A stretch of DNA of 64,000 nucleotides from a virus (IMGVR_UViG_3300021430_000595), one strand, 5' to 3'; shown: positions 160 to 22,476, numbered from the stretch's first letter. The notes: generated by a model from the letters alone, not told the origin. Numbers and translations are program-made.

Positions 160-189
160 TGAATTTTTCTCCTTTTTTTAAATCTTGTA

Positions 190-207
190 CAAAGGTAAAG
201 ATAAATA
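190..207 (-). promoter_or_regulatory. Bacteroidota-type -7 box (TACCTTTG, 190-197) plus TATTTAT motif (201-207)
   Basis: Matches the TAnnTTTG consensus, with TTTG further upstream, and points into the leader ORF. Confidence 0.6.
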
Positions 208-284
208 TTCGAAAAAACAAGAAAAGTCAAAAAAAAATTTAAAAAAAGTTTTTACCGTATATACAGTAATCATAGTTGCCGGGA

Positions 285-291
285 TATTTAT
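285..291 (+). promoter_or_regulatory. TATTTAT putative phage late promoter for the envelope cluster
   Basis: The same motif precedes most virion genes in the window. Confidence 0.5.
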
Positions 292-329
292 GTATAACCA
301 AATAACAAATTAAAACACAAATTACAACT

Positions 330-593
330 ATGAAAAACTTCTTTTCTAAACTTTTCAATGACAACAACACCATTAATGAGAAATCTGTTGTTGGATTCGG
401 AGCATTCGTAATGATGGTAATAACTCTTTTGGTAGACATCACCACTGGTGTTTTAGGAAGAGAAATGCCAATCCACGAGTTCGTTTTTGATGGATTCTTG
501 GTAATCACATTAGGTTCTTTCGGTATTGCATCGGTAGACAAATGGATTAACAATAAAAACAATAAAGGTGAAAATACCCCTTCTGAAGATTAA
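330..593 (+). CDS. Small two-TM membrane protein (holin-like topology, function unknown)
   Basis: Two hydrophobic segments and a charged C-terminus; 87 aa. Confidence 0.6.
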   Translation: MKNFFSKLFNDNNTINEKSVVGFGAFVMMVITLLVDITTGVLGREMPIHEFVFDGFLVITLGSFGIASVDKWINNKNNKGENTPSED

Positions 594-623
594 TTCAGTA
601 GGTTGTTTTAAATAGACATCAAA

Positions 624-1127
624 ATGAAATTCATCAAGAATATTATTCTGTGTGCCCTTATTTTATTACCGATACTATCTTTAAAAGCACAAAACAGTAA
701 AACAATTTTTATTGAGCCTGTAACCAACAATATCAAAGTTGGTGTTTTTGAAGGTAATAAGAATTTATCATTCGGTGTAAGAAATATCATAGAAGAAATC
801 ATAATCGAACAGGACACCTTCTCATTAGTTGGTGATAAATCTTCTGCGGTTTATAGATTACAAGTTGAACTAATCTTTTTTGATATTGTGACCACCAACT
901 CAGGTATAAGTATTTTCCATGAAGATAAAACAACGACAGTTATCAGAATGAAAGGTATACTCTATAAGGGTGATAAAAAAATAAAACAAGAATTTGCTGA
1001 AGGTAAATCAACTGAGATATCAACCTCTACATTAATAATAGATGAAGGTGGTAAATTTAATCAACAATCAGCTAGTTCAGCAATAAAAAAGACAACCCAA
1101 GCACTAATAACTAAATTAATACTATGA
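624..1127 (+). CDS. Secreted alpha/beta protein, possibly CsgG/TolB-N/LptE-like fold
   Basis: Signal peptide ending LKA|Q. Strand-helix-strands-helix pattern resembles the CsgG-like neighbour. Confidence 0.5.
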   Translation: MKFIKNIILCALILLPILSLKAQNSKTIFIEPVTNNIKVGVFEGNKNLSFGVRNIIEEIIIEQDTFSLVGDKSSAVYRLQVELIFFDIVTTNSGISIFHEDKTTTVIRMKGILYKGDKKIKQEFAEGKSTEISTSTLIIDEGGKFNQQSASSAIKKTTQALITKLIL

Positions 1128-3031
1128 AAAAACTAATCCTACTTATCTTAGGGATTGTACTCACAATCTCAGGTTACTCACAAGAAATCGGTAACTATCA
1201 AAATTTTACTACCATAAAGAGAAATGACACAATTGATGTTATTTTTCAGTATAAACCTGATACCACTAAAGATATTAGGTCATTTCAAATTGATTTTCAA
1301 TTTAAAAAACAATTATTTACTCACTTTTCAACCACAGTCGATAGTGACGTTAGTACAATGACTCCAGCAATTTCATACAATCAATATGAAAATTACAAAT
1401 TTGGTTCATATGATACTTTAACTGCTAAATACAATTATGTCTTAGATAGTAATTGGACAGTTGCTAGAAACTATTTGGTTTTATCTAGTGGTAGTCAGAT
1501 AAAAAGTGACATATACATCATACACAATAAATTCATCATAAACAATGTTGGTTCAAACTTCGTTGAGGATAGTGTTCATGTGAATTGGGCTAGAATGTTT
1601 AAAAAAGATGGTGTGACTATCGGAGATAACATTGCAGTACTAACTCATCAAAAAATGGATTTAGAATTAATGGGTAACTTGGTGATTAGTGGTAACGTGG
1701 AATTACCTCCAACCATGAAACTTGATGGTAGAAGACCTACCGTTATTTGTACAAAATACAACACCGGTGAGTTTGTTTCAGAATCATTATGTGACACCAC
1801 AGGATTTTATAGTTTAAATAACGTAGATAAAAATACAAAATATAAGTTACTTTTAAGATTCCCTACCGACAGTATGGAAATGTTTAGAGATTACGCGGTA
1901 ACAATTTCAGATGCGGTTAAAACTTACGATGAGTTTTCATTAACAGATGTGAATCAAAATTTCCAACACCAACATTTAAAATTTGGTTTATCTCACTTAA
2001 TTGCTGATATGAATCAAAACGGTAAACTTGACGGTGGTGACCCTTATTTAATTTATGCAAATGTTAGTGGTCTTAAAAAAATAGACACCACAACCATGAT
2101 AAGGGTATTCCATGCAAGTGTTTATGATTCATTAGTGTTAGGTATAAACCAATGGAATGATTGGCCTAATCACATATCTGCAACGAATTTCATAACTGAT
2201 AGTGTTGGGACAACTAACTTAACTGTTGATATAAAATACTTTATTCAGGGTGATGTTGATAGAACATATTCATCTAGAGTTTGGAATAGTTCGGGTATAT
2301 TAGTTGCTAAAGCGGTGTTTAGAGGTAAGTTAGATATTGACATACCAAATACAGTTGCAACAGGAAAACAACCGGTTTATGTACCTTTTAATATAAACAC
2401 AAATGGTGATATGAATTATGGCTTACAATTTGAAATGAAGTACGAAAAAGACAAAGTTAGATTTGATGAAATAATTTCTAATTTCAATGGTGGTCCTTGG
2501 TTACAATATGTGACTCACGATGAGGTGTCAGGAACAATTAGATTTGGTGGAATGAATAACCAATTCAAAAATGGTTTAATTGGTCAATCAACGCCATTTA
2601 AGGTTAAATTTTCACCGATTGGAAATAATGATGTTGTTTCAAACATCTACATAAGACAATTAATGGATGCTTCCGATGAAAATGGTGACCATTTAAATAT
2701 AAATCTAACAACTCAAATGGCGGTTATGTTATTTAAAAGAGGATTACCGTCGGTAGATGAATATCAAGAAGTGACCGCAATGATTAGACCAAACCCAACA
2801 ACGGGATGGTTTGAATTAGAAGTTAAATTCCCTGAACCTAATATGAAAATGATGGCAACCATCTATGATGTGAATGGTAGGTTAATTCAAAATTTAGGTG
2901 AGGTATCACCAAATTATGCCGAAAGAATCGCATATAAACAAATTGATATGACATCATCCACAAATGGGAATTATTATTTGATTCTAAATAATTATAATAA
3001 ACAATTAACCAAACAATTCATAAAAATTTAA
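1124..3031 (+). CDS. T9SS-secreted protein with cohesin-like and dockerin-like modules and a C-terminal sorting domain
   Basis: Signal peptide GYS|Q; EF-hand-like ADMNQNGKLDGGD; cohesin-like GLQFEMKYEKDKVRFDEI; CTD IRPNPTTG...IYDVNGRLI...GNYYLIL...KQFIKI. Confidence 0.8.
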   Translation: MKKLILLILGIVLTISGYSQEIGNYQNFTTIKRNDTIDVIFQYKPDTTKDIRSFQIDFQFKKQLFTHFSTTVDSDVSTMTPAISYNQYENYKFGSYDTLTAKYNYVLDSNWTVARNYLVLSSGSQIKSDIYIIHNKFIINNVGSNFVEDSVHVNWARMFKKDGVTIGDNIAVLTHQKMDLELMGNLVISGNVELPPTMKLDGRRPTVICTKYNTGEFVSESLCDTTGFYSLNNVDKNTKYKLLLRFPTDSMEMFRDYAVTISDAVKTYDEFSLTDVNQNFQHQHLKFGLSHLIADMNQNGKLDGGDPYLIYANVSGLKKIDTTTMIRVFHASVYDSLVLGINQWNDWPNHISATNFITDSVGTTNLTVDIKYFIQGDVDRTYSSRVWNSSGILVAKAVFRGKLDIDIPNTVATGKQPVYVPFNINTNGDMNYGLQFEMKYEKDKVRFDEIISNFNGGPWLQYVTHDEVSGTIRFGGMNNQFKNGLIGQSTPFKVKFSPIGNNDVVSNIYIRQLMDASDENGDHLNINLTTQMAVMLFKRGLPSVDEYQEVTAMIRPNPTTGWFELEVKFPEPNMKMMATIYDVNGRLIQNLGEVSPNYAERIAYKQIDMTSSTNGNYYLILNNYNKQLTKQFIKI

Positions 3032-3035
3032 AACT

Positions 3036-3377
3036 ATGAGCGAAGAAACAAACGTACCAGAATCTGACGGAACTTGGTCAGGACTAAAAAAGACATTAAT
3101 CGGAACTATCTCCACAATAATTTTAGCTGGAGGTGGATGGTTAACAACAACATTATTTAATGGTGGTGCTGAAGAAAAAGAACCCGCACCGGTTCAACAA
3201 ACCGCACCTATTATTAATTTAAATGTTGATAATTCATCTCAAAATAACTCATCAAATAATGGTGGAGGAACAACAGTTATTAAAGAAAGAATTATTGAGA
3301 AACCAAATAAACAAGAACAACCTTCTAAACCTAAAAAAGAGGGTGATGAATTTAAAGAAAAAGAACCACAATGGTAA
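3036..3377 (+). CDS. Single-TM membrane protein with low-complexity tail
   Basis: Hydrophobic LIGTISTIILAGGGWL, then N/S/P/K-rich tail. Confidence 0.6.
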   Translation: MSEETNVPESDGTWSGLKKTLIGTISTIILAGGGWLTTTLFNGGAEEKEPAPVQQTAPIINLNVDNSSQNNSSNNGGGTTVIKERIIEKPNKQEQPSKPKKEGDEFKEKEPQW

Positions 3378-3910
3378 ATAATAATCAACCTTCAGGATTT
3401 AAAGACCTTCTTAATTCTATGATGAAAAGAAGGTGGTTTATCACCGCAATAGTTTTGGGTGGTTTCATGTTAATAATGGGGGGTATTTTTCTTGCGATTT
3501 TTGAGAGTAGTGAAATTAGTGGTGAATGGAAAGAATTATTACTTCTCCTTTTAGGTGCATTTATTGGTTCATATGGTAAAATAATCGATTACTGGTTTAG
3601 TGATACCGATAAAGATAAAATGTTAGTTCAAAAAATGGATGAAGAGGATGGTGTTTCTTTATCTAACACTTCAGAAATGCCCGTTTCTGCACCAAAACCA
3701 ACATCAACACAAATAACGGATTCGGTTACACAAAAAAGAGTTGAAATTGATGAAGATGGTGATGGTATTATGGATGGTTACGATAATGATGGTGATGGAA
3801 TAATAGATGAATATTTTGAACATCGTCAATGTGAACACATTTGGGGTGATAACGATGGTGATGGTGAGATTGAGTGTTTAAAATGTGGTAAAATACAAGA
3901 CTCTGAATAA
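3371..3910 (+). CDS. Two-TM membrane protein with DxDGDG Ca-binding repeats and C-terminal CxH...CxxC
   Basis: DEDGDG, DNDGDG and DNDGDG; CEH...CLKC. Confidence 0.7.
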   Translation: MVNNNQPSGFKDLLNSMMKRRWFITAIVLGGFMLIMGGIFLAIFESSEISGEWKELLLLLLGAFIGSYGKIIDYWFSDTDKDKMLVQKMDEEDGVSLSNTSEMPVSAPKPTSTQITDSVTQKRVEIDEDGDGIMDGYDNDGDGIIDEYFEHRQCEHIWGDNDGDGEIECLKCGKIQDSE

Positions 3911-3911
3911 T

Positions 3912-4670
3912 ATGGAAAAGACAATCATTAAAAGAGTATTATCACCAATATTGTTGGTAATACTTTGGTTTGTATTGATGTTCTTGTTTGCGAGTACTGC
4001 AACTGCTCAGGTTGTTGGTAAAACACAAACTGAACAATATAAAGCATCATTTGAGACAAGTGTAAACATTGATTCGTTAATGGATTATGAGGGCCCCCAA
4101 ATACCAATACAAATATTAAAAATTGGTATTAGTGATGAAGTTTATGAACAATATCCTGAACTTAAAGAAAAGAAAGTTGGATTGGGTGTTGCAAATATCG
4201 TTCTTGAATACTTGGAGAATCTAAATAGATTTACTTTTACTGAAGACAAAACTGAGATAAAAAATAGAATGGTTAAACAATACCAAGCATCTCAAGCCGG
4301 TATTAGTTACGATACCCTAAATGGTAGAGGTAAGATTAGATTGGCACATTATTTTGTTACAATTGAAGTGTACGATTTCTCAATAAGTGAAGATGAAACA
4401 ATTAACCTATCTGATGGTGTTAAAAATAAAATGGTAACAAGATTAGGTTTACAGGTTAGGTTCACGGACGCAGAAACAGGTCAAATAATTGCTGCTAGTG
4501 GTTTGGGTGAAGCCGTAACAATTAGAGAATTAACGTTACTTAACGATGATAATTTAAGTGAAGTTAAGTTTAATCAGTCAACCATAGGTATTAGTACCAA
4601 GAAAGCATTAGATATTGCATGTTCTAGAATTCTATTAAGAATGATTAAAAAGGGTGTATTCACCAAATAA
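3912..4670 (+). CDS. csgG: CsgG-family (curli assembly/transport-like) outer-membrane protein
   Basis: Signal peptide ATA|Q; LENLNRF..ED; LGLQVRFTDAETGQIIAASGLGEA fits the CsgG-family pattern. Likely start is ATG 3912. Confidence 0.7.
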   Translation: MEKTIIKRVLSPILLVILWFVLMFLFASTATAQVVGKTQTEQYKASFETSVNIDSLMDYEGPQIPIQILKIGISDEVYEQYPELKEKKVGLGVANIVLEYLENLNRFTFTEDKTEIKNRMVKQYQASQAGISYDTLNGRGKIRLAHYFVTIEVYDFSISEDETINLSDGVKNKMVTRLGLQVRFTDAETGQIIAASGLGEAVTIRELTLLNDDNLSEVKFNQSTIGISTKKALDIACSRILLRMIKKGVFTK

Positions 4671-4694
4671 TGAATATGTCTTTAAAAAAAATAT

Positions 4695-4718
4695 AAAAGG
4701 GGGATTTTCCCCCTTTTT
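4695..4718 (+). terminator. Intrinsic terminator within the envelope cluster
   Basis: AAAAGGGGGA-TTT-TCCCCCTTTTT. Confidence 0.75.
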
Positions 4719-4728
4719 AATGTTGTAA

Positions 4729-6237
4729 ATGAAGAACTTAAATTTTAAAAAGATTTTTTTAGTGTTTTTTATTACAATTTTTTGTAATATTGGATTCGCA
4801 CAAGTATCAACGTACACATTTATTGACCCTTGCACAAAAGAGGTGACAAATTTTAGTGTACCATTACAAGGTGGGAAGACGATGATTATATTCTTAAATA
4901 AGATTGGTTATTTTGATGCCAACGATTTATCCAATGGTAGTTTTACTAATTGGGTGAATCAAGTTTATACTGTTTATAGACAAACAAATCCTTGTTCACA
5001 GCAACAAGGTCAAGTAACACAGAATCAAATAACGACTCAAATAATAAGTGGTACAATACAATCATTGGTTGGTTCCATTCTTGCAAATAACCAAGTACAA
5101 TCATCAAATACTGAAAGTGGTTCGGTAAATGCTGGTGGTAATGATGCTGGTGACAAAGACAATAAAAATTCGGATAAGAAAAAAAATAAATCTAAGTCAG
5201 ATGGAAATAACAATTCTTCAGGAGGTGTCACAAATGGTTCTACGAATCAAAATGGAGGACAACCCCAATCAAATTCAGGGACTACTAATCAAAATGGAGG
5301 AAGTGGTGACCAACAAGGAAGTGGAACTCCAACAAACAATACAACGACTCCAAGCACAGGTAACTCAACTACAGGGGGAGGTTCAACGACTCAGCCACCT
5401 GTAAATTCAAATACCAATACCTCAACAAATACTAATACCAATACTTCTACAACAAATGGTGGTGGTAAAACTGATGAAAAACCACCACAAAATAAAACAG
5501 AGGAGGTTGGTACGTCATTAACAATGAATGTTGATGCACACAATGATAATGGGGGTGGTAGTAATAGTGGGGGTAAAGGTAATGGTAGAGCAAATCCGGT
5601 TATTATATCTTCAGATATAACATCAGCACAAAACTTAGATAAAACATTTACTCCGATTATTAATATTGGAACTAGTAAATCATCAATGACAGGTTTATCA
5701 AGTTTTGGTGTGACGGGCATGGTATGGTTAAATTTTAATCAGTTTGCAGTTTCAGGTAGATACACTAAAATTCATTATAATAAATCTAAAAAATTAAAAT
5801 TTATCCATAATTTAAACTTAACGGGAGTTTATACTTATGGAAATTATTTAGGGTTTATTGGTTATAGTGGTATAATAAATGGTGGAAAATATGGTATAAC
5901 AGGTTTTAATGTTAGTGCAGCAGCAACTGTGATTTCAATGGAAAAAAGTGGTTATTATTCACCATCAATAACCGCATTTTATACAAGACCATTTAAGATT
6001 GGTAAAAAATTAATTGTGTCTCCTGAATTATATGTAATTTCAACACCATTAGTTTACTCAACAAAAGAAAAAGTCTCAATAACAGATAGATATATAAGTG
6101 GTTTTGTTGGAAGTGGATTTGATTATCAAATTTCAAAAAGATTCAAAGTGAATGTGAATTATAAAGCAAATTTGAGTACTAATCCCGATTTTCCGGTATT
6201 ATCATTTTTCTTGATTGGAAGTAAGGTTAATTTATGA
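4729..6237 (+). CDS. Secreted protein with G/N/S/T-rich linker and C-terminal outer-membrane beta-barrel
   Basis: Signal peptide GFA|Q; long low-complexity linker; amphipathic strands ending FFLIGSKVNL. Confidence 0.7.
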   Translation: MKNLNFKKIFLVFFITIFCNIGFAQVSTYTFIDPCTKEVTNFSVPLQGGKTMIIFLNKIGYFDANDLSNGSFTNWVNQVYTVYRQTNPCSQQQGQVTQNQITTQIISGTIQSLVGSILANNQVQSSNTESGSVNAGGNDAGDKDNKNSDKKKNKSKSDGNNNSSGGVTNGSTNQNGGQPQSNSGTTNQNGGSGDQQGSGTPTNNTTTPSTGNSTTGGGSTTQPPVNSNTNTSTNTNTNTSTTNGGGKTDEKPPQNKTEEVGTSLTMNVDAHNDNGGGSNSGGKGNGRANPVIISSDITSAQNLDKTFTPIINIGTSKSSMTGLSSFGVTGMVWLNFNQFAVSGRYTKIHYNKSKKLKFIHNLNLTGVYTYGNYLGFIGYSGIINGGKYGITGFNVSAAATVISMEKSGYYSPSITAFYTRPFKIGKKLIVSPELYVISTPLVYSTKEKVSITDRYISGFVGSGFDYQISKRFKVNVNYKANLSTNPDFPVLSFFLIGSKVNL

Positions 6238-7988
6238 GAAAGTTATTTTTGATTTTAATTTTATTAATACCATTGATTGGTTTTTCACAATCGGTAAATT
6301 CACCGTCAGCATCTTCGTATGTACAGAATACAAGTAATCAATCCGCTAGTGGATTTTCTCTTTCAAGTTTTAATTCAAGTGCAACATTATTAGTTACAAT
6401 AGGTTTAGTAAATCCACCACCATCTGTTACGTTGTCTTTAACAACAACAAGTGGTTTGAGTTTAAGTACAGGTTATTCATCGTGGTCTAATTTTAAAAGA
6501 ATTAGTTTTACAGGTACGCAGACAAATATCAATAATGCATTATCTTCATTAAAAATAAATACGGGTTCATCGCCGGGTAATGTTTATATCGCGGTAACCG
6601 CAACAGAAAACCCTTCGGGATATTATTATCTTCCTTCAAACGGTCACTTTTATAGACCTATGAATTGGCCAACAGGTGCTAGTTATACGGGTACAAGTCC
6701 TTCGGTTTATACGAATATTTTGAGTTTAGCATCCTCACAATCATTTAAAGGTCAAACAGGTTATTTAGTAACTGTTACATCACAAGATGAACAAGATTTC
6801 GTTCAAGCGAATGTACCGGGTAGTAATATTTTAATTGCACTCTCAGATAGATTGCAAGAAGGTGTGTGGAAATGGGATGCCGGTCCTGAAAGTGGTACAA
6901 CAATAAAAACGTCTAATTCGGGTGGTAATGTATCGGGACAATATAATAATTGGTGCGGTGGCGAACCAAACAACTGGGGTTCAGGTGAAAATTATACAGT
7001 TACTAAATGGGGTGGTGGTAATTGTTGGAATGACTTTGGTCCACCCGCATCTTCATTTCCGGGTTCTGTTAGTGGTTATGTTATTGAATATGGTACATGG
7101 AGTGACCCATCTAATCAAACATTTACAGATTTTTATACGGGATTCGTTACCCACCAAATTACATGTACACCAACACAAACACCAAATTCCCCAACCGCAA
7201 TAAATGGTTCAAGAATGGGGACAGGTACAGTAACAATATCGGCAACTGTGGGTACAGGTCAAACTGTTGATTGGTATTCAAATTCAACAGGTGGTAATCC
7301 AATAGCGACTAATACAACATCATACACAACACCATCAATATCCACAACAACAAAGTACTACGCACAAGCAAGAAATATGACAACAGGTTGTTTAAGTAAC
7401 TCAAGAACCGAAGTTACAGCAACAGTTATGATAAATGAGAAAATAAGTGGAACAATAAAGATTCCTTCGGGTCTAACAAATAGACCTAAATTAAATCTTT
7501 ATATTGTTGAAGGTGGTGTTGAGACTTTAATCGAAACCGTTGTGGTAAATTCCGATGGTTCATTTATTTTAAATCCAACTAAACACAATTCAACCTATAA
7601 AATTGTGCCTGAATTTACAACATATACCTTAACATCATCTGATTTTGATAGTGTGTTTTTGGAATCACAAAATGAAAACACACCAAATAACATGCCGGTT
7701 GGTCAAGTATTAAATACAGGTTTAAAATTAAGAGCTGGTGATATTAATGAAGATGGTAAAATAACCATATCCGACGCTTTTCTTATTGGTGCAAACATAA
7801 CAGGTATGTTACCATTTAAAGAGATATTGTGGTTCAAATCTTCGGATTATGACTCTATAACCAAAAGTAACTTTAATACGGTAGTATCCTATGATTATTT
7901 TACCGTGAATTTAATCACATCATCAATCACCTTGAATATAAAATACCTAATTAAAGGTGATAGTGATTTGTCTTCTTCATCTAATTAA
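6234..7988 (+). CDS. Secreted adhesin-like protein: C-type lectin, Ig-like domain and dockerin-like module
   Basis: Signal peptide GFS|Q; GYLVTVTSQDEQDF...EGVWKW...WCGGEPNN...WND; Ig-like DWYSNSTGG...TTKYYAQA; AGDINEDGKITISDA. Confidence 0.8.
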   Translation: MRKLFLILILLIPLIGFSQSVNSPSASSYVQNTSNQSASGFSLSSFNSSATLLVTIGLVNPPPSVTLSLTTTSGLSLSTGYSSWSNFKRISFTGTQTNINNALSSLKINTGSSPGNVYIAVTATENPSGYYYLPSNGHFYRPMNWPTGASYTGTSPSVYTNILSLASSQSFKGQTGYLVTVTSQDEQDFVQANVPGSNILIALSDRLQEGVWKWDAGPESGTTIKTSNSGGNVSGQYNNWCGGEPNNWGSGENYTVTKWGGGNCWNDFGPPASSFPGSVSGYVIEYGTWSDPSNQTFTDFYTGFVTHQITCTPTQTPNSPTAINGSRMGTGTVTISATVGTGQTVDWYSNSTGGNPIATNTTSYTTPSISTTTKYYAQARNMTTGCLSNSRTEVTATVMINEKISGTIKIPSGLTNRPKLNLYIVEGGVETLIETVVVNSDGSFILNPTKHNSTYKIVPEFTTYTLTSSDFDSVFLESQNENTPNNMPVGQVLNTGLKLRAGDINEDGKITISDAFLIGANITGMLPFKEILWFKSSDYDSITKSNFNTVVSYDYFTVNLITSSITLNIKYLIKGDSDLSSSSN

Positions 7989-8402: not shown

Positions 8403-8825
8403 TTACACAGTATGTTCAATTTGTACTCTAACACAATTTTGAGGTAAATGATTAACATGTCTGTAGTTGTTAATATATCCCATGATGTTGGCACTACCAA
8501 TTGCATTTGCTGAATGTGTATAGACATCAACAACATTTTTTCCACTCATCCATCTCTCAACCAACCATTTTGCACAATCATAACCTGTTTTTTCGGTTAT
8601 ATTCTCATAGTTAAGTGTGTAGTTGTGATAAACATTTTTATGCCATTCCTTCATAGCACTATCACCCAAATCGTGGTCTAATGATATACACTCAATATTA
8701 TCTAAACCAATTTTACTTACTGTTTCTACGAACTCATCGTAATTGCGAACAACCACCCAACTTGGGTCAATTGGGGTTCTTACATCGTCAAGGTAGATAC
8801 GGTAAGTTTTTAAATTTTTTCCCAT
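8403..8825 (-). CDS. Cyclic-phosphate-processing receiver-domain protein
   Basis: IYLDDVRTP, ISLDHDLG, TGYDCAKWL and HSAN motifs; lies next to an RNA ligase. Confidence 0.8.
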   Translation of the reverse strand: MGKNLKTYRIYLDDVRTPIDPSWVVVRNYDEFVETVSKIGLDNIECISLDHDLGDSAMKEWHKNVYHNYTLNYENITEKTGYDCAKWLVERWMSGKNVVDVYTHSANAIGSANIMGYINNYRHVNHLPQNCVRVQIEHTV

Positions 8826-9583
8826 AACAAATTTTTAAATTTTTTTTCTTTTATTCCTTTATAGATTAACCCACATGACATGTTTAAACCGATAATTGCA
8901 TCCCCAATTGAATTAAAAATTGTTATATTGTTAGTTAGTAGACAAGTTACTTTTAATTCAATTGGTTTAACACCTCGTTTTTTTAATGGGGTTGGTTTGA
9001 AATCATTTTTTTCATTCTCATAACACCACAAAAAACCTAATGCCGAAGGTAACTTTTTTTTAAGACAATTTGTTATCGATGTGGTATAATTACTGTTTAA
9101 TGATTTTGCCGCTTCTTGTAAACTATTGTGAACCATAATAAAATTACCATCTTTATCGAACTGACATATTTTTTTATATTGTGATTCCTTTATTTTTTGG
9201 TTAGTGTCATTACTTCTCTTATGTCCCATGTGACTCACACTTAATTTTCTCTTAGTTTCGTCAGATAACTTAATTCCCAAATTACTATTAACAATTAATC
9301 TTTTGTTGTAACCATAATTGGGGTTGTTCGCATTAAGTGTTTCAATCCAATATTTCTCTTTTAACAATAATTCATTTATATTGGTGATTTCAATAATCTC
9401 ATATTGAAAATTTTCAATCCCATACATATTAAATGACGATTGTAAATGACTATTGTAATGTTTATTATTCTTTAATAGTCTTTTATGTGTTTTAAATCTA
9501 TTATTAATATTAATTGCACTACCAACATAAACTTTATTATTTTTTATGTTTGTAATTTTATACACCCCAATTATTTTTTTCAT
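8810..9583 (-). mobile_element. Free-standing GIY-YIG homing endonuclease with NUMOD3/NUMOD1-like domains
   Basis: GVYKITN...YVGSA...R...H; KLSDETKRKLS; KICQFDKDG...NSLQEAAK...GFLW. Confidence 0.9.
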
Positions 9584-9646
9584 AAAATTGTTTTATCATA
9601 AATATTAAAATTTAAGAAAAAAAAAACAATATCGTCTAAATATATT

Positions 9647-10717
9647 TTATACTTCATTTTTTTTAAAAGGTTTTGAGTATTTTGGGTAAAGTAATTTCCA
9701 TATTTGTTCTGAATATTCTTTACCGTCTAACATTGAAAATAAAATACCCGGATGTTTGTATTTTTTTGCATATTCTGCAAACACCGCTCTATTTTCAACA
9801 TTTGGTACTCTATTAATTATTTTGAATATCCATTTGTATTCGTTATCTAATGTCGCGTATTGAGTCAAAAAATTCTCCTTGGTTTCCCTAACCCAATTAT
9901 AGAATTCGTCCGGTACCTTTTCAATAATCTCATCCAAAGGTTTACCTTCTTTTAGGTATTCCCATATGTCACGATTAGAGATGTTGGTCAATATTCTATG
10001 TAAACGAACATACTCCTCAAACTTTATTTTCATTCTAAAATTTGATGGATAGAATCGTATAACGAACCCTTCTTTGTTTGGTGAGTTTAATTGTTTATAA
10101 ACATCAAACGTGTTCTTGTTGAAGGTTACCATTGAACTCTCAACTATATCCTCTTCTTTAATCTCTGACGAGTGAAAAATTGCACGTGCAGTACCCCAAT
10201 TTAACTCACCTTCTGAAGGTCTTGTAACTGTTAAGAATGTGATTTTCTCACAACCGTAATCGATTACAATCCTATTCTCGGGATAAATTATTTCACACAA
10301 ATATGTGAATTCCTTGTAGAATTTATCTAAATCATATTTTGATTTTAGAATTTGCATTCCACGTATAGACTGTTCGGAGGTAAATGAACCTCTGGTTGCC
10401 ATTATCCATTCCCCATCGTAGAAAAAAAGAATACCTAACGAACCGTCCATTTTATCTTGTATGTATGCATATTCACTATCCCACGGAATTAAGTTTTTAT
10501 CAATCACTTCTTCGTAATTGAAGAACTTACCGAATGGTTCTGCAACAATGTTTCCTTGACTGTCAGTTATAAGTCCGCGACAACGCATGGTAATATCATC
10601 CCACAAAGATTCATATTGAACTTTTGGTGAATAATTCCAAATCAATAGGTCTTTGGTTGGGTGGGATTGTTTTTGTAACAATCCATCTTCATGATATTTT
10701 ATTAATATTTCAATCAT
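9647..10717 (-). CDS. rnlA: T4 Rnl1/RnlA-like RNA ligase
   Basis: CRGLI, PFGKFFNY, motif I KMDGSLG, EGFV, MKIK. Likely start is ATG 10717. Confidence 0.9.
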   Translation of the reverse strand: MIEILIKYHEDGLLQKQSHPTKDLLIWNYSPKVQYESLWDDITMRCRGLITDSQGNIVAEPFGKFFNYEEVIDKNLIPWDSEYAYIQDKMDGSLGILFFYDGEWIMATRGSFTSEQSIRGMQILKSKYDLDKFYKEFTYLCEIIYPENRIVIDYGCEKITFLTVTRPSEGELNWGTARAIFHSSEIKEEDIVESSMVTFNKNTFDVYKQLNSPNKEGFVIRFYPSNFRMKIKFEEYVRLHRILTNISNRDIWEYLKEGKPLDEIIEKVPDEFYNWVRETKENFLTQYATLDNEYKWIFKIINRVPNVENRAVFAEYAKKYKHPGILFSMLDGKEYSEQIWKLLYPKYSKPFKKNEV

Positions 10718-10719
10718 AA

Positions 10720-10830
10720 TTATTTTTTCGTTTCCAAACGAATCCACCACATTTTCTTGTTGGGTGATTTAATACGTTTCTTATCCCATTTATTTTTAAT
10801 TCGTCTTCCGCCATCACAGTCGTCCCCCAT
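10720..10830 (-). CDS. 36-aa basic small protein MGDDCDGGRRIKNKWDKKRIKSPNKKMWWIRLETKK
   Basis: Fills the gap between the kinase and ligase genes with ATG and TAA; not in the ORF track. Confidence 0.4.
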   Translation of the reverse strand: MGDDCDGGRRIKNKWDKKRIKSPNKKMWWIRLETKK

Positions 10831-10837
10831 TCTTTTA

Positions 10838-11251
10838 TTACAAGGAAACGTCAAAACGATTTTTCATAATTTCTAACTTTTCGTCCGGTACTCCGTGAAC
10901 ATTATTACCGCCGTGTCTATTTTCAACAATAAGGGTATGTACACGATAACCGTATCTTTCTGCCATTTCAAAATATGGTTTCATTTCCCACTCTTGGGTA
11001 AATGTATTCGCAACCACAATCCTAATAACACCATTCATCATTAGGTTAGCACATCTTTGTTGACAGTCATTATGTGCTTCCTTTAATTTTTCAAAATCAA
11101 AGTTATATGTACCATCGGGCTTGGTGAAATAATCATCCGCAGACAATGGTTTTAGGTTGTTATTTGGTAGATATAAAATAACCTCACCTAATGTTGATTT
11201 ACCTGAACCCGGTAAACCCCTCAACAAAATTAAATCTTTTGGGAAATTCAT
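10838..11251 (-). CDS. P-loop polynucleotide kinase-like protein (AAA_33 type)
   Basis: LRGLPGSGKST, SADDYF, NTF, HGVP. Likely start is ATG 11251. Confidence 0.85.
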   Translation of the reverse strand: MNFPKDLILLRGLPGSGKSTLGEVILYLPNNNLKPLSADDYFTKPDGTYNFDFEKLKEAHNDCQQRCANLMMNGVIRIVVANTFTQEWEMKPYFEMAERYGYRVHTLIVENRHGGNNVHGVPDEKLEIMKNRFDVSL

Positions 11252-11267
11252 AATACTGGTATTTTTA

Positions 11268-11275
11268 CAAATATA
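11268..11275 (-). promoter_or_regulatory. Bacteroidota-type -7 promoter TATATTTG for the RNA-repair operon
   Basis: Exact TAnnTTTG about 16 nt upstream of the kinase ATG. Confidence 0.65.
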
Positions 11276-11295
11276 CAATTTTTTTTCGACAGTTC

Positions 11296-11437: not shown

Positions 11438-13456
11438 TTACCCCTTTTTCTTAAAAATTTTTATTTCACCGTCTTTGAACTTCAGATTTACACCTTCATT
11501 TTCTTTAATGTCATTACGAAGAATCGCATCACTTAGAAAATCTTCACAAAGATTTTGAATGATTCTTTTAATTGGTCTAGCACCAAAATCTTCTTGTGTA
11601 TTTAATTCTGAAATTCTCTCGACAATCGTTTTATCAAAAGAAATTTTGTAGTTCTTCTCTTTAAGTCTTGAAATTAGTTTATCCAATTCGATACCAATAA
11701 TCTTATGGATTGTTTCTTTATTTAAAGAATTGAAACTAATAATATCGTCAATTCTGTTTAAAAATTCGGGGTTGAAGTGTTGTTTAAGTGATTTTTGAAC
11801 TATAGATTTTTTAACCTCATAGTTTTGTGTGTCACTAAATGATGTGTTAAATCCAACACCTTTACCAAACTCAGATACTTTTTTAGCACCAATGTTTGAT
11901 GTCATAATCACAATTGTGTTTGTGAAGTTAATCTTTCTTCCAAAAGAATCTGTTAAATGTCCTTCATCTAAAATCTGTAGAAGGATGTTGAACACATCTT
12001 TATGTGCTTTTTCAACCTCATCAAATAGGACAACCGCAAATGGGTTATTTTTGATTTTTTCGGTTAATTGACCACCTTCGTCATAACCAACATAACCCGG
12101 AGGAGAACCGATTAATTTTGCAACATTGTGTTTCTCCATATATTCACTCATATCTACACGGATTACTTTTTCAGGGTCTCCAAATAACACCTCAGCAATT
12201 GTTTTTGCCAAGTAAGTTTTACCGACACCTGTTGAACCTAAGAAGATAAATGAACCAATTGGTTTGTTTGCATCTTTAATACCAACACGATTTCTTCTGA
12301 TTGATTTTGAAATGATTGAGATTGCTTCATCTTGACCAATTACCTTAGATTTTAATCTTTCCTCAAGTGCCAATAAGTTGTTAATCTCGTTACTGTCCAC
12401 TTTTGAAATTGGTACACCCGTCATTTGTGAAACAATTTCATAAACATCATTTACCGTAACAGGAACTTTATTATTCTTTTGAGATTCTAACCACTTCTTT
12501 TTCTCATCCTCAAGTTTAGTGGTGATTTTCCTTTCTTCATCTCTTAGTTTTGCAGCTTGCTCATAGTTCTGACTTTTAACAACTTGAATCTTTCTTTCTT
12601 TAATTTCGTCAGATTCTTTTTTAAGTTTTTCTATTGATTCAGGAATTTTTGTGTTGATTTTTTTATCAGAACCTAATTCGTCTAAAATGTCAATCGCCTT
12701 ATCAGGAAATTGTCTATCGGTGATGTATCTTGAAGATAGATTCACAATAGTTTCAGTGACACCATCTTCGTAATGTACTTTATGGAAACTCTCATATGAA
12801 CCTTTTAGATTGTTTAATATCTGTATGGTTTCATTTTTTGATGGTTCTTTTAAGACAATTTTTTGGAATCGTCTAACTAATGCGGCATCCTTTTCAATGT
12901 GTTTTTTAAACTCATCGAATGTTGTTGCTCCAATACATTGTATTTCACCTCTAGCCAATGCAGGTTTTAAAATATTTGCTGCGTCCATTGAACCACTAGC
13001 ATTACCCGCACCAACCATTGTGTGTATTTCATCTATAAAAACAATCACATTTGGTTCGTTTTGTAGTTCATTTAGAATTGCTTTAATTCTTTCTTCAAAC
13101 TGACCCCTGTACTTTGTACCGGCAACTAATGAGGTTAAATCTAAAGACATTATTCTTTTATCTAAAAGGTTTGATGGGCATTCACCTTTTACAATTAATA
13201 ATGCTAGTTTTTCAACCAATGCTGATTTACCAACACCAGCATCACCTACGATAACTACATTGTTCTTTTTCTTTCTTGATAGGATTTGTGCGATTCTCTT
13301 AACTTCAGAATCCCTACCAACAACGGGGTCAATTTTACCTTCCTCTGCTAATTTATTCAAGTCTCTTGAAAAATTATCAAGTATTGGAGTGGTTGAACCT
13401 TTTCTTGTCTTTTTTGGGTTTGATACTTGACCCTCTTCAAAAAAATCTACTGACAT
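11438..13456 (-). CDS. clpC: ClpC-like AAA+ chaperone lacking the N-terminal Clp repeat domain
   Basis: GDAGVGKS, FIDEIH, UVR-like QNYEQAAKLRDEE, GSTGVGKT, GSPPGYVGY, FDEVEKAH, GVGF loop, GARP. Confidence 0.92.
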   Translation of the reverse strand: MSVDFFEEGQVSNPKKTRKGSTTPILDNFSRDLNKLAEEGKIDPVVGRDSEVKRIAQILSRKKKNNVVIVGDAGVGKSALVEKLALLIVKGECPSNLLDKRIMSLDLTSLVAGTKYRGQFEERIKAILNELQNEPNVIVFIDEIHTMVGAGNASGSMDAANILKPALARGEIQCIGATTFDEFKKHIEKDAALVRRFQKIVLKEPSKNETIQILNNLKGSYESFHKVHYEDGVTETIVNLSSRYITDRQFPDKAIDILDELGSDKKINTKIPESIEKLKKESDEIKERKIQVVKSQNYEQAAKLRDEERKITTKLEDEKKKWLESQKNNKVPVTVNDVYEIVSQMTGVPISKVDSNEINNLLALEERLKSKVIGQDEAISIISKSIRRNRVGIKDANKPIGSFIFLGSTGVGKTYLAKTIAEVLFGDPEKVIRVDMSEYMEKHNVAKLIGSPPGYVGYDEGGQLTEKIKNNPFAVVLFDEVEKAHKDVFNILLQILDEGHLTDSFGRKINFTNTIVIMTSNIGAKKVSEFGKGVGFNTSFSDTQNYEVKKSIVQKSLKQHFNPEFLNRIDDIISFNSLNKETIHKIIGIELDKLISRLKEKNYKISFDKTIVERISELNTQEDFGARPIKRIIQNLCEDFLSDAILRNDIKENEGVNLKFKDGEIKIFKKKG

Positions 13457-18857: not shown

Positions 18858-20630
18858 ATGAGTAATCAGAAAATACAACAGTTAAAGGAATATGCTCGTA
18901 TAATGAAAGACACTCCTTATGCGTTAAAAACATATTTACAAACATACGATAATACACAGAAAAAATTCGTTCCGTTAGAGTTGTTCCCCGACCAAATACA
19001 ACTATTAAAAGACTACGAATCGTATAATGAGAACATAACAAGAAAATATAGACAGGCCGGTGTTACCACCGTAACTGCTGCGTGGATTTCTAAAAGATTA
19101 CAGTTAGCAAAACCGGAAAATCCCGATAAGGTACTTGTAATTGCAAATAAAAAAGATACCGCAGTTGAGATGGCCAATAAGATTAGACATTTCTTAGAAC
19201 AATGGCCTGACTGGATTAATGTTGGTTTCTCACCCGATAAAAACTCAGAAAGTAGATTTAGATTAAACAACGGTTGTGAAGTTAAAGCAGTAGCAACATC
19301 AGGAGATGCTTTACGTGGTTATACACCAACCATTCTTGTATTTGACGAGGCGGCATATATCGAAGCGGGTGAAGACTTTTGGGCCGCATCTATGGCATCC
19401 CTATCTACAGGTGGTAAGATTATCCTTATTTCAACACCAAACGGTTTTGACCCAATTTACTATGGGGTGTATGACCAAGCAATTAGAGGTGTTAATGATT
19501 TCCATATAACCGATTTAAGATGGTTTAAAGACCCAAGATATACAAAGGATTTAAGATGGGTTAAATGTAACGATATTGTTCATTACATGTTACATAGAGA
19601 TTTATATAACGACGATGAGGTTGTTATGACAGATTTTGACATAACTAAATATAATGAGTACTTGGAACAAGGTTATAAACCACTTTCTTCTTGGTTTGAA
19701 GGTATGTCTAAAAAATTCAAGTTCGATAGAAGAAAAATTGCACAAGAATTGGAATGTGACTTCTTGGGTTCAGGTGATGGTGTAATATCAGGTGAGATAC
19801 AAGACAACATCACTAAAAATATGTTGAGAGAACCTAAAGAAAAGTATATGCAAGGTACTTTTTGGCAATGGAAAGAACCTGTTCAAGGTCACAGATATAT
19901 TATGGGTGTTGATGTTAGTAGAGGTGATAGTGAAGACTTCTCATCAATTAATATAATTGATTTTGATGAAAGAGAACAAGTTGCAGAATATGTCGGTAAA
20001 ATACCCCCAGACGATTTAGCATCACTTGCATACAAATGGGGTGTACTTTATGAAGCGTTTATTGTAATTGATATTACCGGTGGTATGGGTGTTGCAACAT
20101 CAAGAAAATTACAGGAAATGAATTATAGAAATCTTTTTATTGATGGTGTTAATGTCAAAAATATTTGGGAATATAATTCAAAAGCAATGGATAAAATCCC
20201 CGGATTGAATTTTAACAATAAAAGAAGTCAAATAATTGCAGCGTTTGAAGAACAGTTAAGGAAAGGATTTCAAGTTAGGTCATCAAGGTTAATGAACGAA
20301 TTGAACACATTTGTTTATATAAACGGTAGAGCAGACCACATGAAAGGTGCACACGATGATGCCATTATGAGTTTATCTATGGCTCTTTATGCTGCGGATA
20401 TTTCATTCACTCAGTTAGAAAGAAACGAAAATGCAAATAAAGCGATGTTGGAATCTTGGACAATATCCGAGAGAACATATGAACCAAATAAATCATTTTA
20501 CTCATATGGAACCGCATTTGACCAAATAGGTTCAATGTCACTTGATGGTCAACAAGTTTTACCTCAAAGACAAAATGCAACAAAAGAACAATATTCACAA
20601 TATTCATGGTTATTTGGTAAAAAAAGATAA
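18858..20630 (+). CDS. Terminase large subunit (T4 gp17-like)
   Basis: RQAGVTT (variant Walker A), LVFDEAA, ISTPNG, QELEC.F.GS, GVDVSRG, HDDAIMS. Confidence 0.93.
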   Translation: MSNQKIQQLKEYARIMKDTPYALKTYLQTYDNTQKKFVPLELFPDQIQLLKDYESYNENITRKYRQAGVTTVTAAWISKRLQLAKPENPDKVLVIANKKDTAVEMANKIRHFLEQWPDWINVGFSPDKNSESRFRLNNGCEVKAVATSGDALRGYTPTILVFDEAAYIEAGEDFWAASMASLSTGGKIILISTPNGFDPIYYGVYDQAIRGVNDFHITDLRWFKDPRYTKDLRWVKCNDIVHYMLHRDLYNDDEVVMTDFDITKYNEYLEQGYKPLSSWFEGMSKKFKFDRRKIAQELECDFLGSGDGVISGEIQDNITKNMLREPKEKYMQGTFWQWKEPVQGHRYIMGVDVSRGDSEDFSSINIIDFDEREQVAEYVGKIPPDDLASLAYKWGVLYEAFIVIDITGGMGVATSRKLQEMNYRNLFIDGVNVKNIWEYNSKAMDKIPGLNFNNKRSQIIAAFEEQLRKGFQVRSSRLMNELNTFVYINGRADHMKGAHDDAIMSLSMALYAADISFTQLERNENANKAMLESWTISERTYEPNKSFYSYGTAFDQIGSMSLDGQQVLPQRQNATKEQYSQYSWLFGKKR

Positions 20631-20682: not shown

Positions 20683-22476
20683 ATGGCAGATAATAATTTG
20701 ACGGTGTTTCAGAGATTAACTAGAATGTTTGGTTTCCCAAACAAACCAACCACTGAACAACCACCGTCGTTTAATTTCGATAAAGAAGAAATTCTAAAAA
20801 CAAGTAGTCGAGAAGAGTACGAAAAAGCGATGTTACAGGCTCAACAAAGTCAATACATTGCAGATAAATGGACTAAGTTAGAACAATCATTATACAATCA
20901 ATCAGTTTACTATGAACCAAATAGATTGGCTGCATATTATGATTACGAGTCCATGGAGTTTACTCCTGAAATTTCCGCAGCTTTGGATATATACGCTGAA
21001 GAATCGACCACATTATCAGAAAAAGGTGAAATTCTTACCGTTTTCTCGGAATCAACAAGAATTAAAAGTATTCTTGAAGACCTATTCATTAATCGACTTG
21101 ATTTAAACACTAACCTACAAATGTGGGCTAGAGGTGTTTGTAAGTACGGTGACAATTTTGTGTATTTAAAAATTGACCCCGAAAAAGGTGTTGTTGGTTG
21201 TCAACAATTACCAAACATTGAGATTGAAAGAATGGAAGGTAGGGAAAGTAAAACACCTAATCAACAGAATCCACTACAATTACCGTCAAGAGAGTTGAGG
21301 TTCCAATGGAAAAATAAAGACATGGAATTCCAAGCGTGGGAAATTGCACACTTTAGATTATTGGGTGACGATAGAAAATTACCATACGGTACATCAATGT
21401 TGGACAAGATAAGAAGAATTTGGAAACAATTACTTCTTGCTGAGGATGCGATGTTAATTTATAGAACAACAAGAGCACCCGAAAGACGTGTCTTTAAAGT
21501 GTTCGTTGGTAACATGGATGATAAAGATATTGAGGCTTACGTACAACGTGTTGCGAATAAATTTAAGAGAGACCAAGTGGTTGATTCAAGAAACGGTCAA
21601 GTTGATATGAGATACAATCAAATGGCGGTTGACCAAGATTATTTCATACCTGTACGTGACCCCGCACAAACTAACCCAATTGAAACATTAGCAGGTGCAC
21701 AAAACTTAGGTGAAATCGCAGATATTGAATATATACAAAAGAAAATGTTAGCTGCGTTACGTATACCAAAAGCGTTCTTAGGTTTTGAAGAAGTTGTTGG
21801 TGATGGAAAAACCTTAGCATTAATGGATATTCGTTTTGCTAGAACAATCAACAGAATCCAAAAATCATTAATACAAGAGTTAAATAAAATTGCATTAATT
21901 CACCTTTACCTTCTTGGTATGGAAGATGAATTAAACAATTTCTCACTTTCATTAACAAACCCATCGGCACAATCTGATTTGTTAAGAATTGAACAATGGA
22001 AAGAGAAAATTACATTGTATAAGGACGCAACTTCAGACCAATCTCAGGTTGGTATTTTACCGGTATCACATACTTGGGCTAAGAAAAATATCTTAGGTAT
22101 GAGTGATAGTGAAGTTATCCAAGATTTACAACAACAAAGACTTGAGAGAGCAATTGGTTTTGAATTAACGAATACTCAAAATGTAATTAAACGTTCTGGT
22201 GTCTTTGATGATGTTGACGCTAAATACGGTGTACCTGAAGAAGAAAGAGTGGAAGGTGGGGAAACACCAGCGGAGGGTGGAATGGATATGGGTGGAGGTG
22301 CACCACCAACACCACCGGCAGGTGGAGGTGAAGGACCTTTAAGTGAAAGTAAAAAAGATAAAATTCTAAGTATGTTGGGTGATAATAACAAATTGGAAGA
22401 CCTTTTTGATATTAATAAAGCACAACAGAATATTTATGAAATAGAAAATAAACTGAAAGATATTTTAAACGAATAA
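20683..22476 (+). CDS. Portal protein (T4 gp20-like)
   Basis: PEISAALDIYA; QLLLAEDAMLIYRTTRAPERRVF.V.VGNM; DYFIPVR; IETLAG; D.RF.R.I.RIQ. Confidence 0.93.
   Translation: MADNNLTVFQRLTRMFGFPNKPTTEQPPSFNFDKEEILKTSSREEYEKAMLQAQQSQYIADKWTKLEQSLYNQSVYYEPNRLAAYYDYESMEFTPEISAALDIYAEESTTLSEKGEILTVFSESTRIKSILEDLFINRLDLNTNLQMWARGVCKYGDNFVYLKIDPEKGVVGCQQLPNIEIERMEGRESKTPNQQNPLQLPSRELRFQWKNKDMEFQAWEIAHFRLLGDDRKLPYGTSMLDKIRRIWKQLLLAEDAMLIYRTTRAPERRVFKVFVGNMDDKDIEAYVQRVANKFKRDQVVDSRNGQVDMRYNQMAVDQDYFIPVRDPAQTNPIETLAGAQNLGEIADIEYIQKKMLAALRIPKAFLGFEEVVGDGKTLALMDIRFARTINRIQKSLIQELNKIALIHLYLLGMEDELNNFSLSLTNPSAQSDLLRIEQWKEKITLYKDATSDQSQVGILPVSHTWAKKNILGMSDSEVIQDLQQQRLERAIGFELTNTQNVIKRSGVFDDVDAKYGVPEEERVEGGETPAEGGMDMGGGAPPTPPAGGGEGPLSESKKDKILSMLGDNNKLEDLFDINKAQQNIYEIENKLKDILNE

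Follow-up and report, generated by a model that had tools for sequence, protein, structure and literature searches.

Pelagimyophages and the OM43 phage Melnitz encode CsgG (plus CsgF) without curlin. The function of these proteins has been called a mystery, and the proposals made for phage CsgG are uptake, aggregation ('sibling capture') and lysis timing (PMC7029224, PMC9004378). Here we analyze a block of eight genes (g1–g8) at positions 330-7988 of a 64,000-nt stretch of phage DNA, IMGVR_UViG_3300021430_000595 (the window), which includes two CsgG-like proteins, an outer-membrane β-barrel, a protein with a sorting domain of the type IX secretion system (T9SS), as well as a C-type lectin. Our preferred but tentative interpretation is that a conserved phage module installs phage-made envelope proteins in the infected Bacteroidota cell, comprising an outer-membrane core and a T9SS-exported scaffold that would hold the lectin.

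The block resembles the pelagimyophage and Melnitz clusters in belonging to a lytic aquatic phage and in combining a CsgG-type protein and small exported neighbors with neither CsgA nor CsgB. Those phages infect Proteobacteria and carry a recognizable CsgG plus CsgF in a hypervariable region, whereas the CsgG-like protein described here is too divergent for Pfam, lacks a lipobox, is duplicated (g6 and g2) and has no CsgF, and the module adds a 12-strand barrel, T9SS cargo, a lectin and three inner-membrane proteins. Relative to the Escherichia coli CsgG/CsgE/CsgF channel, it lacks the lipid anchor, the conserved Asn-Phe, curlin, CsgE and CsgF. The exporters PelC–PelB and LptE–LptD also pair a ring lipoprotein with a barrel, but their barrels have 16 and 26 strands and their substrates are polysaccharide or lipopolysaccharide; no sequence relationship was found between the barrel protein g7 and PelB/LptD-type partner barrels. 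FapF and the type Va autotransporter translocators share with g7 a 12-strand C-terminal barrel that follows a long flexible linker and an N-terminal domain.

The putative surface proteins recall Bacteroidota cohesin–dockerin scaffolds and T9SS type-A cargo, with cohesin joined to a type-A sorting domain (most clearly in gp15 of the Flavobacterium phage immuto) and a calcium-loop-like DxNxDGxxxxxD motif carried by separate module proteins. They differ in that the putative dockerin spans ~190 aa, has a single loop and matches below threshold, and in that the whole set is phage-encoded. A survey of huge phages has recorded 1,603 barrel proteins in 1,303 phages, 678 from freshwater, and envelope-related neighbors around 10-, 12-, 16- and 22-strand barrels; its main text makes no mention of CsgG, T9SS, lectin or cohesin (bioRxiv 10.64898/2026.10.24.761521). 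The initial annotation of the window knew of no characterized system with this composition. We likewise found no description of the composite module in literature searches, but phage CsgG without curlin was already known (PMC7029224, PMC9004378).

Gene order and conservation of the module

All eight open reading frames (ORFs) of the block lie on the plus strand, where the initial annotation had placed them. They largely abut: three junctions overlap by 4–7 nt, and the sole gap above 35 nt is the 58-nt interval between g6 and g7 (4671-4728). A g6 relative is present in 493 IMG/VR contigs, 80 of which were fetched for the synteny survey (some counts below are over 81 loci). Genes g2–g8 each occur in 71–77 loci, and at least 70 of the 80 contigs have them in the same order; most absences fall at contig ends. 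The gene set, whose co-occurrence elsewhere had been left for checking, recurs in synteny in dozens of independent contigs. The view of the block as an eight-gene set holds for g2–g8, which are conserved together, but not for g1, which travels with an endolysin gene.

Homologs of g6 form 6,448 clusters at 90% identity, nearly all without a name, and those of g5 form 7,459 clusters at the same identity, none from cultured phages; the g5 product is on record on a 142 kb contig. Near-complete relatives measure 310–321 kb. The sole cultured relatives are the Flavobacterium phages vB_FspM_immuto (~160 kb; immuto), in which genes 13–19 are the same module in rotated order and g5 is absent. The module is also found on phage-like contigs binned into Flavobacterium, Sediminibacterium and Bacteroidetes metagenome-assembled genomes (MAGs). 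The machinery proteins g5 and g6 are 70–91% identical among relatives, whereas the putatively exposed g3 and g8 are 22–77% identical and show domain swaps such as PA14 and Ig.

A marine lineage keeps the module in reduced form (L097:4246-12204, on a 191-kb contig), with a g6 copy that is 37% identical. The run comprises a 985-aa cohesin/C-terminal sorting domain (CTD)-like protein, a 284-aa protein that starts with a signal peptide and has a C-terminus of the barrel type, a protein with a membrane segment plus coiled coil, a ferredoxin, a CsgG-like protein that is a lipoprotein, a g7-like protein of 328 aa and a g2-like protein of 171 aa. The membrane plus coiled-coil protein holds the g4 position. 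This run shows that core and cargo are deeply conserved.

One clade (L051:10727-16360; also L052, L054, L057, L067, L070, L075 and L078) has extra genes between g6 and g7. They encode a class-3 lipase (PF01764, 4e-31), an 827-aa TonB-dependent-receptor-like protein (CarbopepD_reg, Plug, OMP_b-brl_3) and a 398-aa lipoprotein; two small lipoproteins follow g8 as well. The inserts look like a phage-borne SusC-type outer-membrane uptake pair, and phages of this group evidently collect envelope genes at the module site. The extra small ORFs of this lineage were considered as curlin-like repeat proteins and proved to be lipoproteins or unremarkable.

Export signals and host

Five products carry signal peptides followed by Gln, as the initial annotation had read them: LKA|Q in g2, GYS|Q in g3, ATA|Q in g6, GFA|Q in g7 and GFS|Q in g8. 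In each, a basic N-terminus leads into a hydrophobic core, and a small-x-small site precedes the Gln. In the g7, g3 and g8 alignments this Gln never varies, and most g2 and g6 homologs have it too. For signal peptidase I substrates of Bacteroidetes, Gln at +1 is the rule (PMC5837995), and it has previously been recorded for Porphyromonas phage proteins (PMC10367356). Together with the T9SS sorting domain of g3 and the Flavobacterium host of immuto, these signals bear out the assignment of the host to Bacteroidota. Kyte–Doolittle windows locate hydrophobic segments in g1, g4 and g5, in agreement with the three membrane proteins described previously.

The CsgG-like proteins g6 and g2

Gene g6 (3912..4670, plus strand) encodes a 252-aa protein with an ATG start; an alternative GTG lies at 3885. 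The protein itself has no Pfam or NCBIfam match at E<=1, yet its description as CsgG-like is borne out by profile and fold searches. Searching 1.8 billion representatives yielded 228 relatives. PF03783 (CsgG) is matched by 18 of the 33 that were aligned (best 1.9e-17), and E. coli CsgG chains are matched by the family profile across positions 1-183 at E 0.004. The top BFVD match is a phage 'CsgG', a language-model look-alike search agrees, and g6 has the CsgG fold. We class the protein as a divergent member of the CsgG superfamily, within the CsgG/HfaB family, and as a candidate pore protein. It is not close kin of pelagimyophage CsgG: among 50,697 phage records, tblastn with g6 and with a 37%-identical relative found immuto only.

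CsgG requires a lipid-anchor Cys for outer-membrane targeting. In g6 and its phage homologs, the cleavage site is of the signal peptidase I type (A|Q) and there is no lipobox Cys; an L-x-G-C lipobox is present in distant g6 relatives and in the marine-lineage copy. At the position of the CsgG constriction loop, Tyr-Pro is invariant in the g6 family and Asn-Phe is not conserved. The predicted hairpins are similar in length to the transmembrane hairpins of CsgG. The first matches its E. coli CsgG counterpart in amphipathicity (0.73/-1.69 versus 0.36/-1.65); the second does not.

The initial annotation had suspected a second CsgG-like fold, and intermediate sequences support one in g2 (624..1127, plus strand; 167 aa). 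Direct similarity between g2 and g6 is weak, with an hhalign probability of 85% over 33 columns of the two alignments. The g2 profile matches the gene adjoining, or one past, CsgG-like genes in three distant loci (L092, L082 and L096; E 1e-10 to 9e-12), and the g6 profile matches the same proteins at 2.7e-23, 1.2e-14 and 1.6e-7. Because both profiles meet in these proteins, we assign g2 as a small CsgG-like paralog of g6. Matches of g2 to a portal protein (PHROG 5929, E 8e-4, 62 residues), to TraT (E 0.012) and to paramyxovirus phosphoprotein (PDB, E 0.14) were set aside as weak and partial.

Locus L092, on a 232-kb Ignavibacteriales contig, looks chromosomal and has a tRNA pseudouridine synthase upstream; in it, a CsgG-like gene above the Pfam cut-off is paired with a g2-like gene. 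The presence of the pair in so distant a setting indicates that it predates the phage group. Tandem CsgG-like paralogs were also observed in Nitrospinota and unclassified bacterial MAG contigs (L094:8386-9838 and L095:7319-8757), so the two-paralog arrangement exists outside phages.

The outer-membrane barrel g7

The predicted outer-membrane β-barrel of the initial annotation corresponds to the C-terminus of g7 (4729..6237, plus strand; 502 aa), which forms a 12-strand barrel encoded by 5581-6234. The architecture of the protein is conserved: a signal peptide is followed by a domain of ~90 aa in which two Cys are invariant, an amphipathic helix, a linker and a 218-aa C-terminus whose last residue is hydrophobic or aromatic. 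The linker is highly variable in length and composition and of low complexity (Ser/Gly/Asn/Thr-rich or Lys/Glu-rich). FapF, autotransporter and KdgM barrels tie as the nearest barrel family. Marine homologs of g7 are 328-329 aa long, lack the long linker and lie between the CsgG-like and g2-like genes.

The putative scaffold g3 and the lectin g8

Gene g3 (1124..3031, plus strand) encodes a 635-aa protein. Its signal peptide and N-terminal domain precede a dockerin-like module (1676-2305), a cohesin-like domain (2306-2791) and a T9SS type-A C-terminal sorting domain (~2789-3028). The sorting domain, which had been noted from the outset, scores above both curated cut-offs at residues 555-634: 30.9 bits for PF18962 (cut-off 27, E 3.5e-7) and 26 bits for TIGR04183 (cut-off 23, E 6.7e-6). 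Cohesin (PF00963) is matched by 9 of 17 g3 homologs, the best at 7.8e-6. It is plainest in immuto gp15, which scores 36.7 bits for cohesin against a cut-off of 24.1 (5.9e-9), has a CTD match at 2.4e-8, and is itself matched by the g3 cohesin-region profile at 7e-19 and by the g3 profile at E 1e-24.

The last gene of the block, g8 (6234..7988, plus strand), encodes a 584-aa protein with a signal peptide, an N-terminal domain, a C-type lectin domain (Pfam match 6753-6992), an Ig_7 domain (7182-7427) and a dockerin-like module (7431-7985). The lectin assignment of the initial annotation is upheld by 26.6 bits for Lectin_C (PF00059) against a cut-off of 22.6 (1.1e-5) and by readable EPN and WND motifs (E244-P245-N246 and W265-N266-D267), which are nearly invariant in the alignment; Lectin_C is found in 14 of 15 g8 homologs. 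Ig_7, a domain typical of Cytophaga T9SS surface proteins, is matched at E 5.2e-15. A T9SS sorting domain is absent from g8 and from all 15 of these homologs.

These two proteins share a ~190-aa module (residues 185-394 of g3 and 400-584 of g8), ~30% identical, that has a single DxNxDGxxxxxD loop and ends alike in IKY..GD...SS. Dockerin matches are weak and were seen in 7 of 15 g8 homologs (best 0.0079), but the module may still work like a dockerin. The arrangement in immuto is informative, as g3 is split there: gp14 corresponds to the N-terminal part plus the module (E 1.8e-10) and gp15 to cohesin plus CTD, each with its own signal peptide, and gp13 combines the lectin with the module. Two module proteins without a sorting signal (gp13 and gp14) are thus adjacent to a minimal cohesin–CTD protein. 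The division of g3 into a module protein and a cohesin–CTD protein suggests non-covalent assembly, and this gene fission is the strongest indirect evidence that points to assembly of the surface proteins.

The probable inner-membrane proteins g4 and g5

The 113-aa product of g4 (3036..3377, plus strand), present in 76 of 81 loci, is a probable bitopic inner-membrane protein, its topology being assigned from charge distribution. An acidic N-terminus and Lys-Lys precede a weaker, Thr/Gly-rich hydrophobic segment, which is followed by a Gln/Asn/Pro-rich spacer and a conserved C-terminal DEFxE..P.W. A match of g4 to FliL (E 0.12) was discarded as noise.

The adjacent g5 (3371..3910, plus strand) encodes a 179-aa inner-membrane protein with two segments, one strongly hydrophobic and the second weaker but invariant. 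A 43-residue stretch (residues 52-94, at 3524-3652), comprising the second hydrophobic helix and the following acidic/basic segment, is letter-identical in 71 of 76 loci. It is encoded by 33 nucleotide versions, with third codon positions varying at 39 of 43. This pattern of substitution indicates that the stretch is under protein-level constraint of unusual strength, far above any other part of the module. It matches no family or known motif. The acidic DxDGDG/Cys-His tail of g5 is optional, and a match to DUF6498 (E 0.14) is noise.

The holin-like protein g1 and the endolysin

Gene g1 (330..593, plus strand) is a loosely attached member of the block, and its position varies between loci. The 87-aa product has the size, the two hydrophobic segments and the charged C-terminus of a holin; it has no family match in library searches. 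In other loci, although not in the window, g1 is found beside an endolysin: it adjoins the GH19 endolysin in L059-61 and L081 and lies 833 nt upstream in L087, and the immuto homolog, gp79, is directly upstream of a GH19 'chitinase' and a holin. Since g1 moves, and in six lineages either adjoins the GH19 endolysin or is no more than 1 kb from it, it is probably a lysis protein.

In 34 of 81 loci, the endolysin (PG_binding_1 plus GH19) lies within the module or next to it. Its sites are after g8 (L023-L050), between g5 and g6 (L022), before g1/g2 (L059-61 and L087) and after g6 (L088). It lies ~31 kb from the module in the 93%-complete contig of L012, the closest g1–g2 lineage to the window, and 30 kb away in immuto. 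No endolysin or holin of the immuto or L023 type was found in the window. We also compared g4 with the inner-membrane partner of two-component spanins: there is no heptad pattern in its Gln/Asn/Pro-rich periplasmic part, and the module holds no lipobox partner.

Regulatory elements and surroundings of the block

An AT-rich, divergent intergenic region (161..329) upstream of g1 is the presumed promoter region; a short minus-strand ORF starts near 160. Downstream of that ORF, at 8-38 on the minus strand, is a strong intrinsic-terminator-like hairpin with a 13-bp stem. The initial annotation took a TATTTAT upstream of g1 as a mark of late expression. A single copy is present, at 285-291, but the window holds 42 copies against 43.8 expected, and the motif also precedes unrelated genes. 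With the count at chance level, the late-expression argument loses its statistical basis. A scan for the sigma-70 consensus gave 41 matches against 45.8 in shuffles, again not above chance. The g6–g7 gap contains a G+C-rich hairpin (GGGGG-loop-CCCCC; 4695..4717) with A/T runs on both sides, which could terminate or attenuate transcription in either direction and possibly split the block into g1–g6 and g7–g8.

The phage origin of the window is confirmed by genes for a large terminase (18858-20630), a portal (20683-22476) and a major head protein (26021-27751). Four minus-strand genes in a row (8403-11278) look like an RNA-repair set: a cyclic-phosphate-processing receiver domain protein (PF20274, 5e-22), a 257-aa homing-endonuclease-like ORF, an RNA ligase (PHROG 562, 1e-66) and a P-loop kinase-like protein (AAA_33). 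A 672-aa homolog of ATP-dependent proteases is encoded on the same strand (11438-13456; PHROG 4871, E 1e-245).

A model for the module and its alternatives

We propose that the module probably rebuilds the surface of the infected cell. In this model, the CsgG-like paralogs g6 and g2 and the barrel protein g7 would form an outer-membrane core, from which the small, disulfide-type N-terminal domain of g7 would hang on its long flexible linker. The core would probably be joined to the inner membrane by the bitopic g4 and the two-helix g5. The scaffold g3 would be exported by the host T9SS through its C-terminal sorting domain, and its cohesin would hold proteins with the dockerin-like module, chiefly the lectin g8, which has a signal peptide and no sorting domain. 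The infected cell would then display a phage sugar-binding protein; as a guess, the pay-off may be adhesion or the masking of surface glycans late in infection.

Several observations weigh against this model. In the outer-membrane core, g6 lacks the lipid-anchor Cys of CsgG and would have to form its pore without it, and the second hairpin is poorly amphipathic. In the scaffold, the T9SS sorting domain is recognizable in 10 of 17 g3 homologs and some lineages lack it, and g3 itself has no Pfam cohesin match at E<=0.1, the matches coming from its relatives. The g8 module scores 14.9 bits for Dockerin_1 (PF00404) against a cut-off of 22.9 (E 0.032, model positions 1-22) and has a single calcium-loop-like motif, not the usual duplicated pair. 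To our knowledge, no established mechanism exports a partner piggy-back through T9SS. The recurrence of the endolysin in or next to the module, at several positions, is a further difficulty, and a core set that all lineages retain is more in keeping with an essential step, lysis for instance, than with an accessory adhesin.

A role in lysis or egress is, in our assessment, somewhat unlikely, but we keep it as a strong rival, mainly on account of the recurrent if rearranged endolysin linkage. The envelope-spanning set, with g4 in the inner membrane and g6, g2 and g7 in the outer membrane, would act as spanins or control lysis timing, with g1 and g5 as holin-type or timing proteins and the lectin and cohesin proteins as accessories. 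The endolysin lies within ~2 kb of the module in several lineages, in differing positions, the immuto lysis cassette includes the g1 homolog, the marine protein at the g4 position has an i-spanin-like architecture, the module behaves as a core gene set, and a timing role has been put forward for phage CsgGF (PMC9004378). However, the freshwater module has no partner of the lipoprotein o-spanin type, as g2, g6 and g7 lack a lipobox; the periplasmic part of g4 is Pro/Gln-rich and disordered-looking, not coiled-coil; the endolysin is tens of kilobases away in L012 and immuto; and the lectin, cohesin and T9SS signal, which are not known to take part in lysis, have remained with the core across deep divergence. 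Another rival is superinfection exclusion or receptor masking, in which the exported proteins would cover or alter the phage receptor (surface glycans or T9SS/gliding-associated surface proteins) and keep other phages, or the phage's own progeny, from adsorbing to infected cells and debris. We consider this unlikely: exclusion genes are usually sporadic and lineage-specific, unlike a seven-gene core conserved at 80–90% identity, and the TraT matches are weak.

It is also unlikely, though conceivable, that the module is an undescribed, self-contained phage trans-envelope machine, in which a two-helix/one-helix inner-membrane pair, g5 and g4, would be coupled to two CsgG-like rings and the 12-strand barrel. 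Such a machine would export or anchor phage proteins, the lectin g8 for example, that lack a host secretion signal, beside a hijacked T9SS that delivers the cohesin scaffold; g5 would contribute a conserved Asp/Lys embedded in the membrane, and g4 would supply an extended spacer together with a docking motif conserved at its C-terminus. An uptake pore or auxiliary nutrient module, with the CsgG-like and barrel proteins opening a path for larger solutes that feed the long infection of a ~300-kb phage, is highly improbable. It has been called the 'simplest explanation' for pelagimyophage CsgG (PMC7029224), huge-phage barrels often adjoin transport genes (bioRxiv 10.64898/2026.10.24.761521), and the L051 lineage inserts its receptor-like, lipoprotein and lipase genes between g6 and g7. 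These extra transport genes are nevertheless confined to one clade, and uptake leaves the cohesin, the lectin, the T9SS signal, g4 and g5 unexplained. Least credible of all is that the block is an assembly artefact or a set of virion structural proteins misread as exported. The block does start close to the window's left end, and what it encodes is similar to surface proteins of the host. However, dozens of independent contigs, of up to 321 kb and from different samples, show the same junctions and gene order, which excludes the host-contig chimera raised as a concern in the initial annotation. The module is also present in a cultured, fully sequenced phage, its GC content (0.31-0.34) matches that of the rest of the window, and five conserved cleavable signal peptides argue against virion parts.

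Phages with this module are among the commonest large phages in freshwater metagenomes, on contigs up to ~320 kb, and every lineage examined retains it. The invariant stretch of g5 may mark a very constrained contact, possibly with a host machine. If the module supplies the missing outer-membrane lysis step in Bacteroidota phages, its proteins would be a new class of lysis proteins. If instead the lectin is displayed, as in our preferred model, this would clearly exemplify a lytic phage's use of the host T9SS to alter how infected cells stick to particles, neighbors or other phages, with consequences for the flow of carbon through Flavobacteria attached to particles. As immuto is a cultured member, the module offers a tractable system for the question of why phages carry CsgG without curlin.

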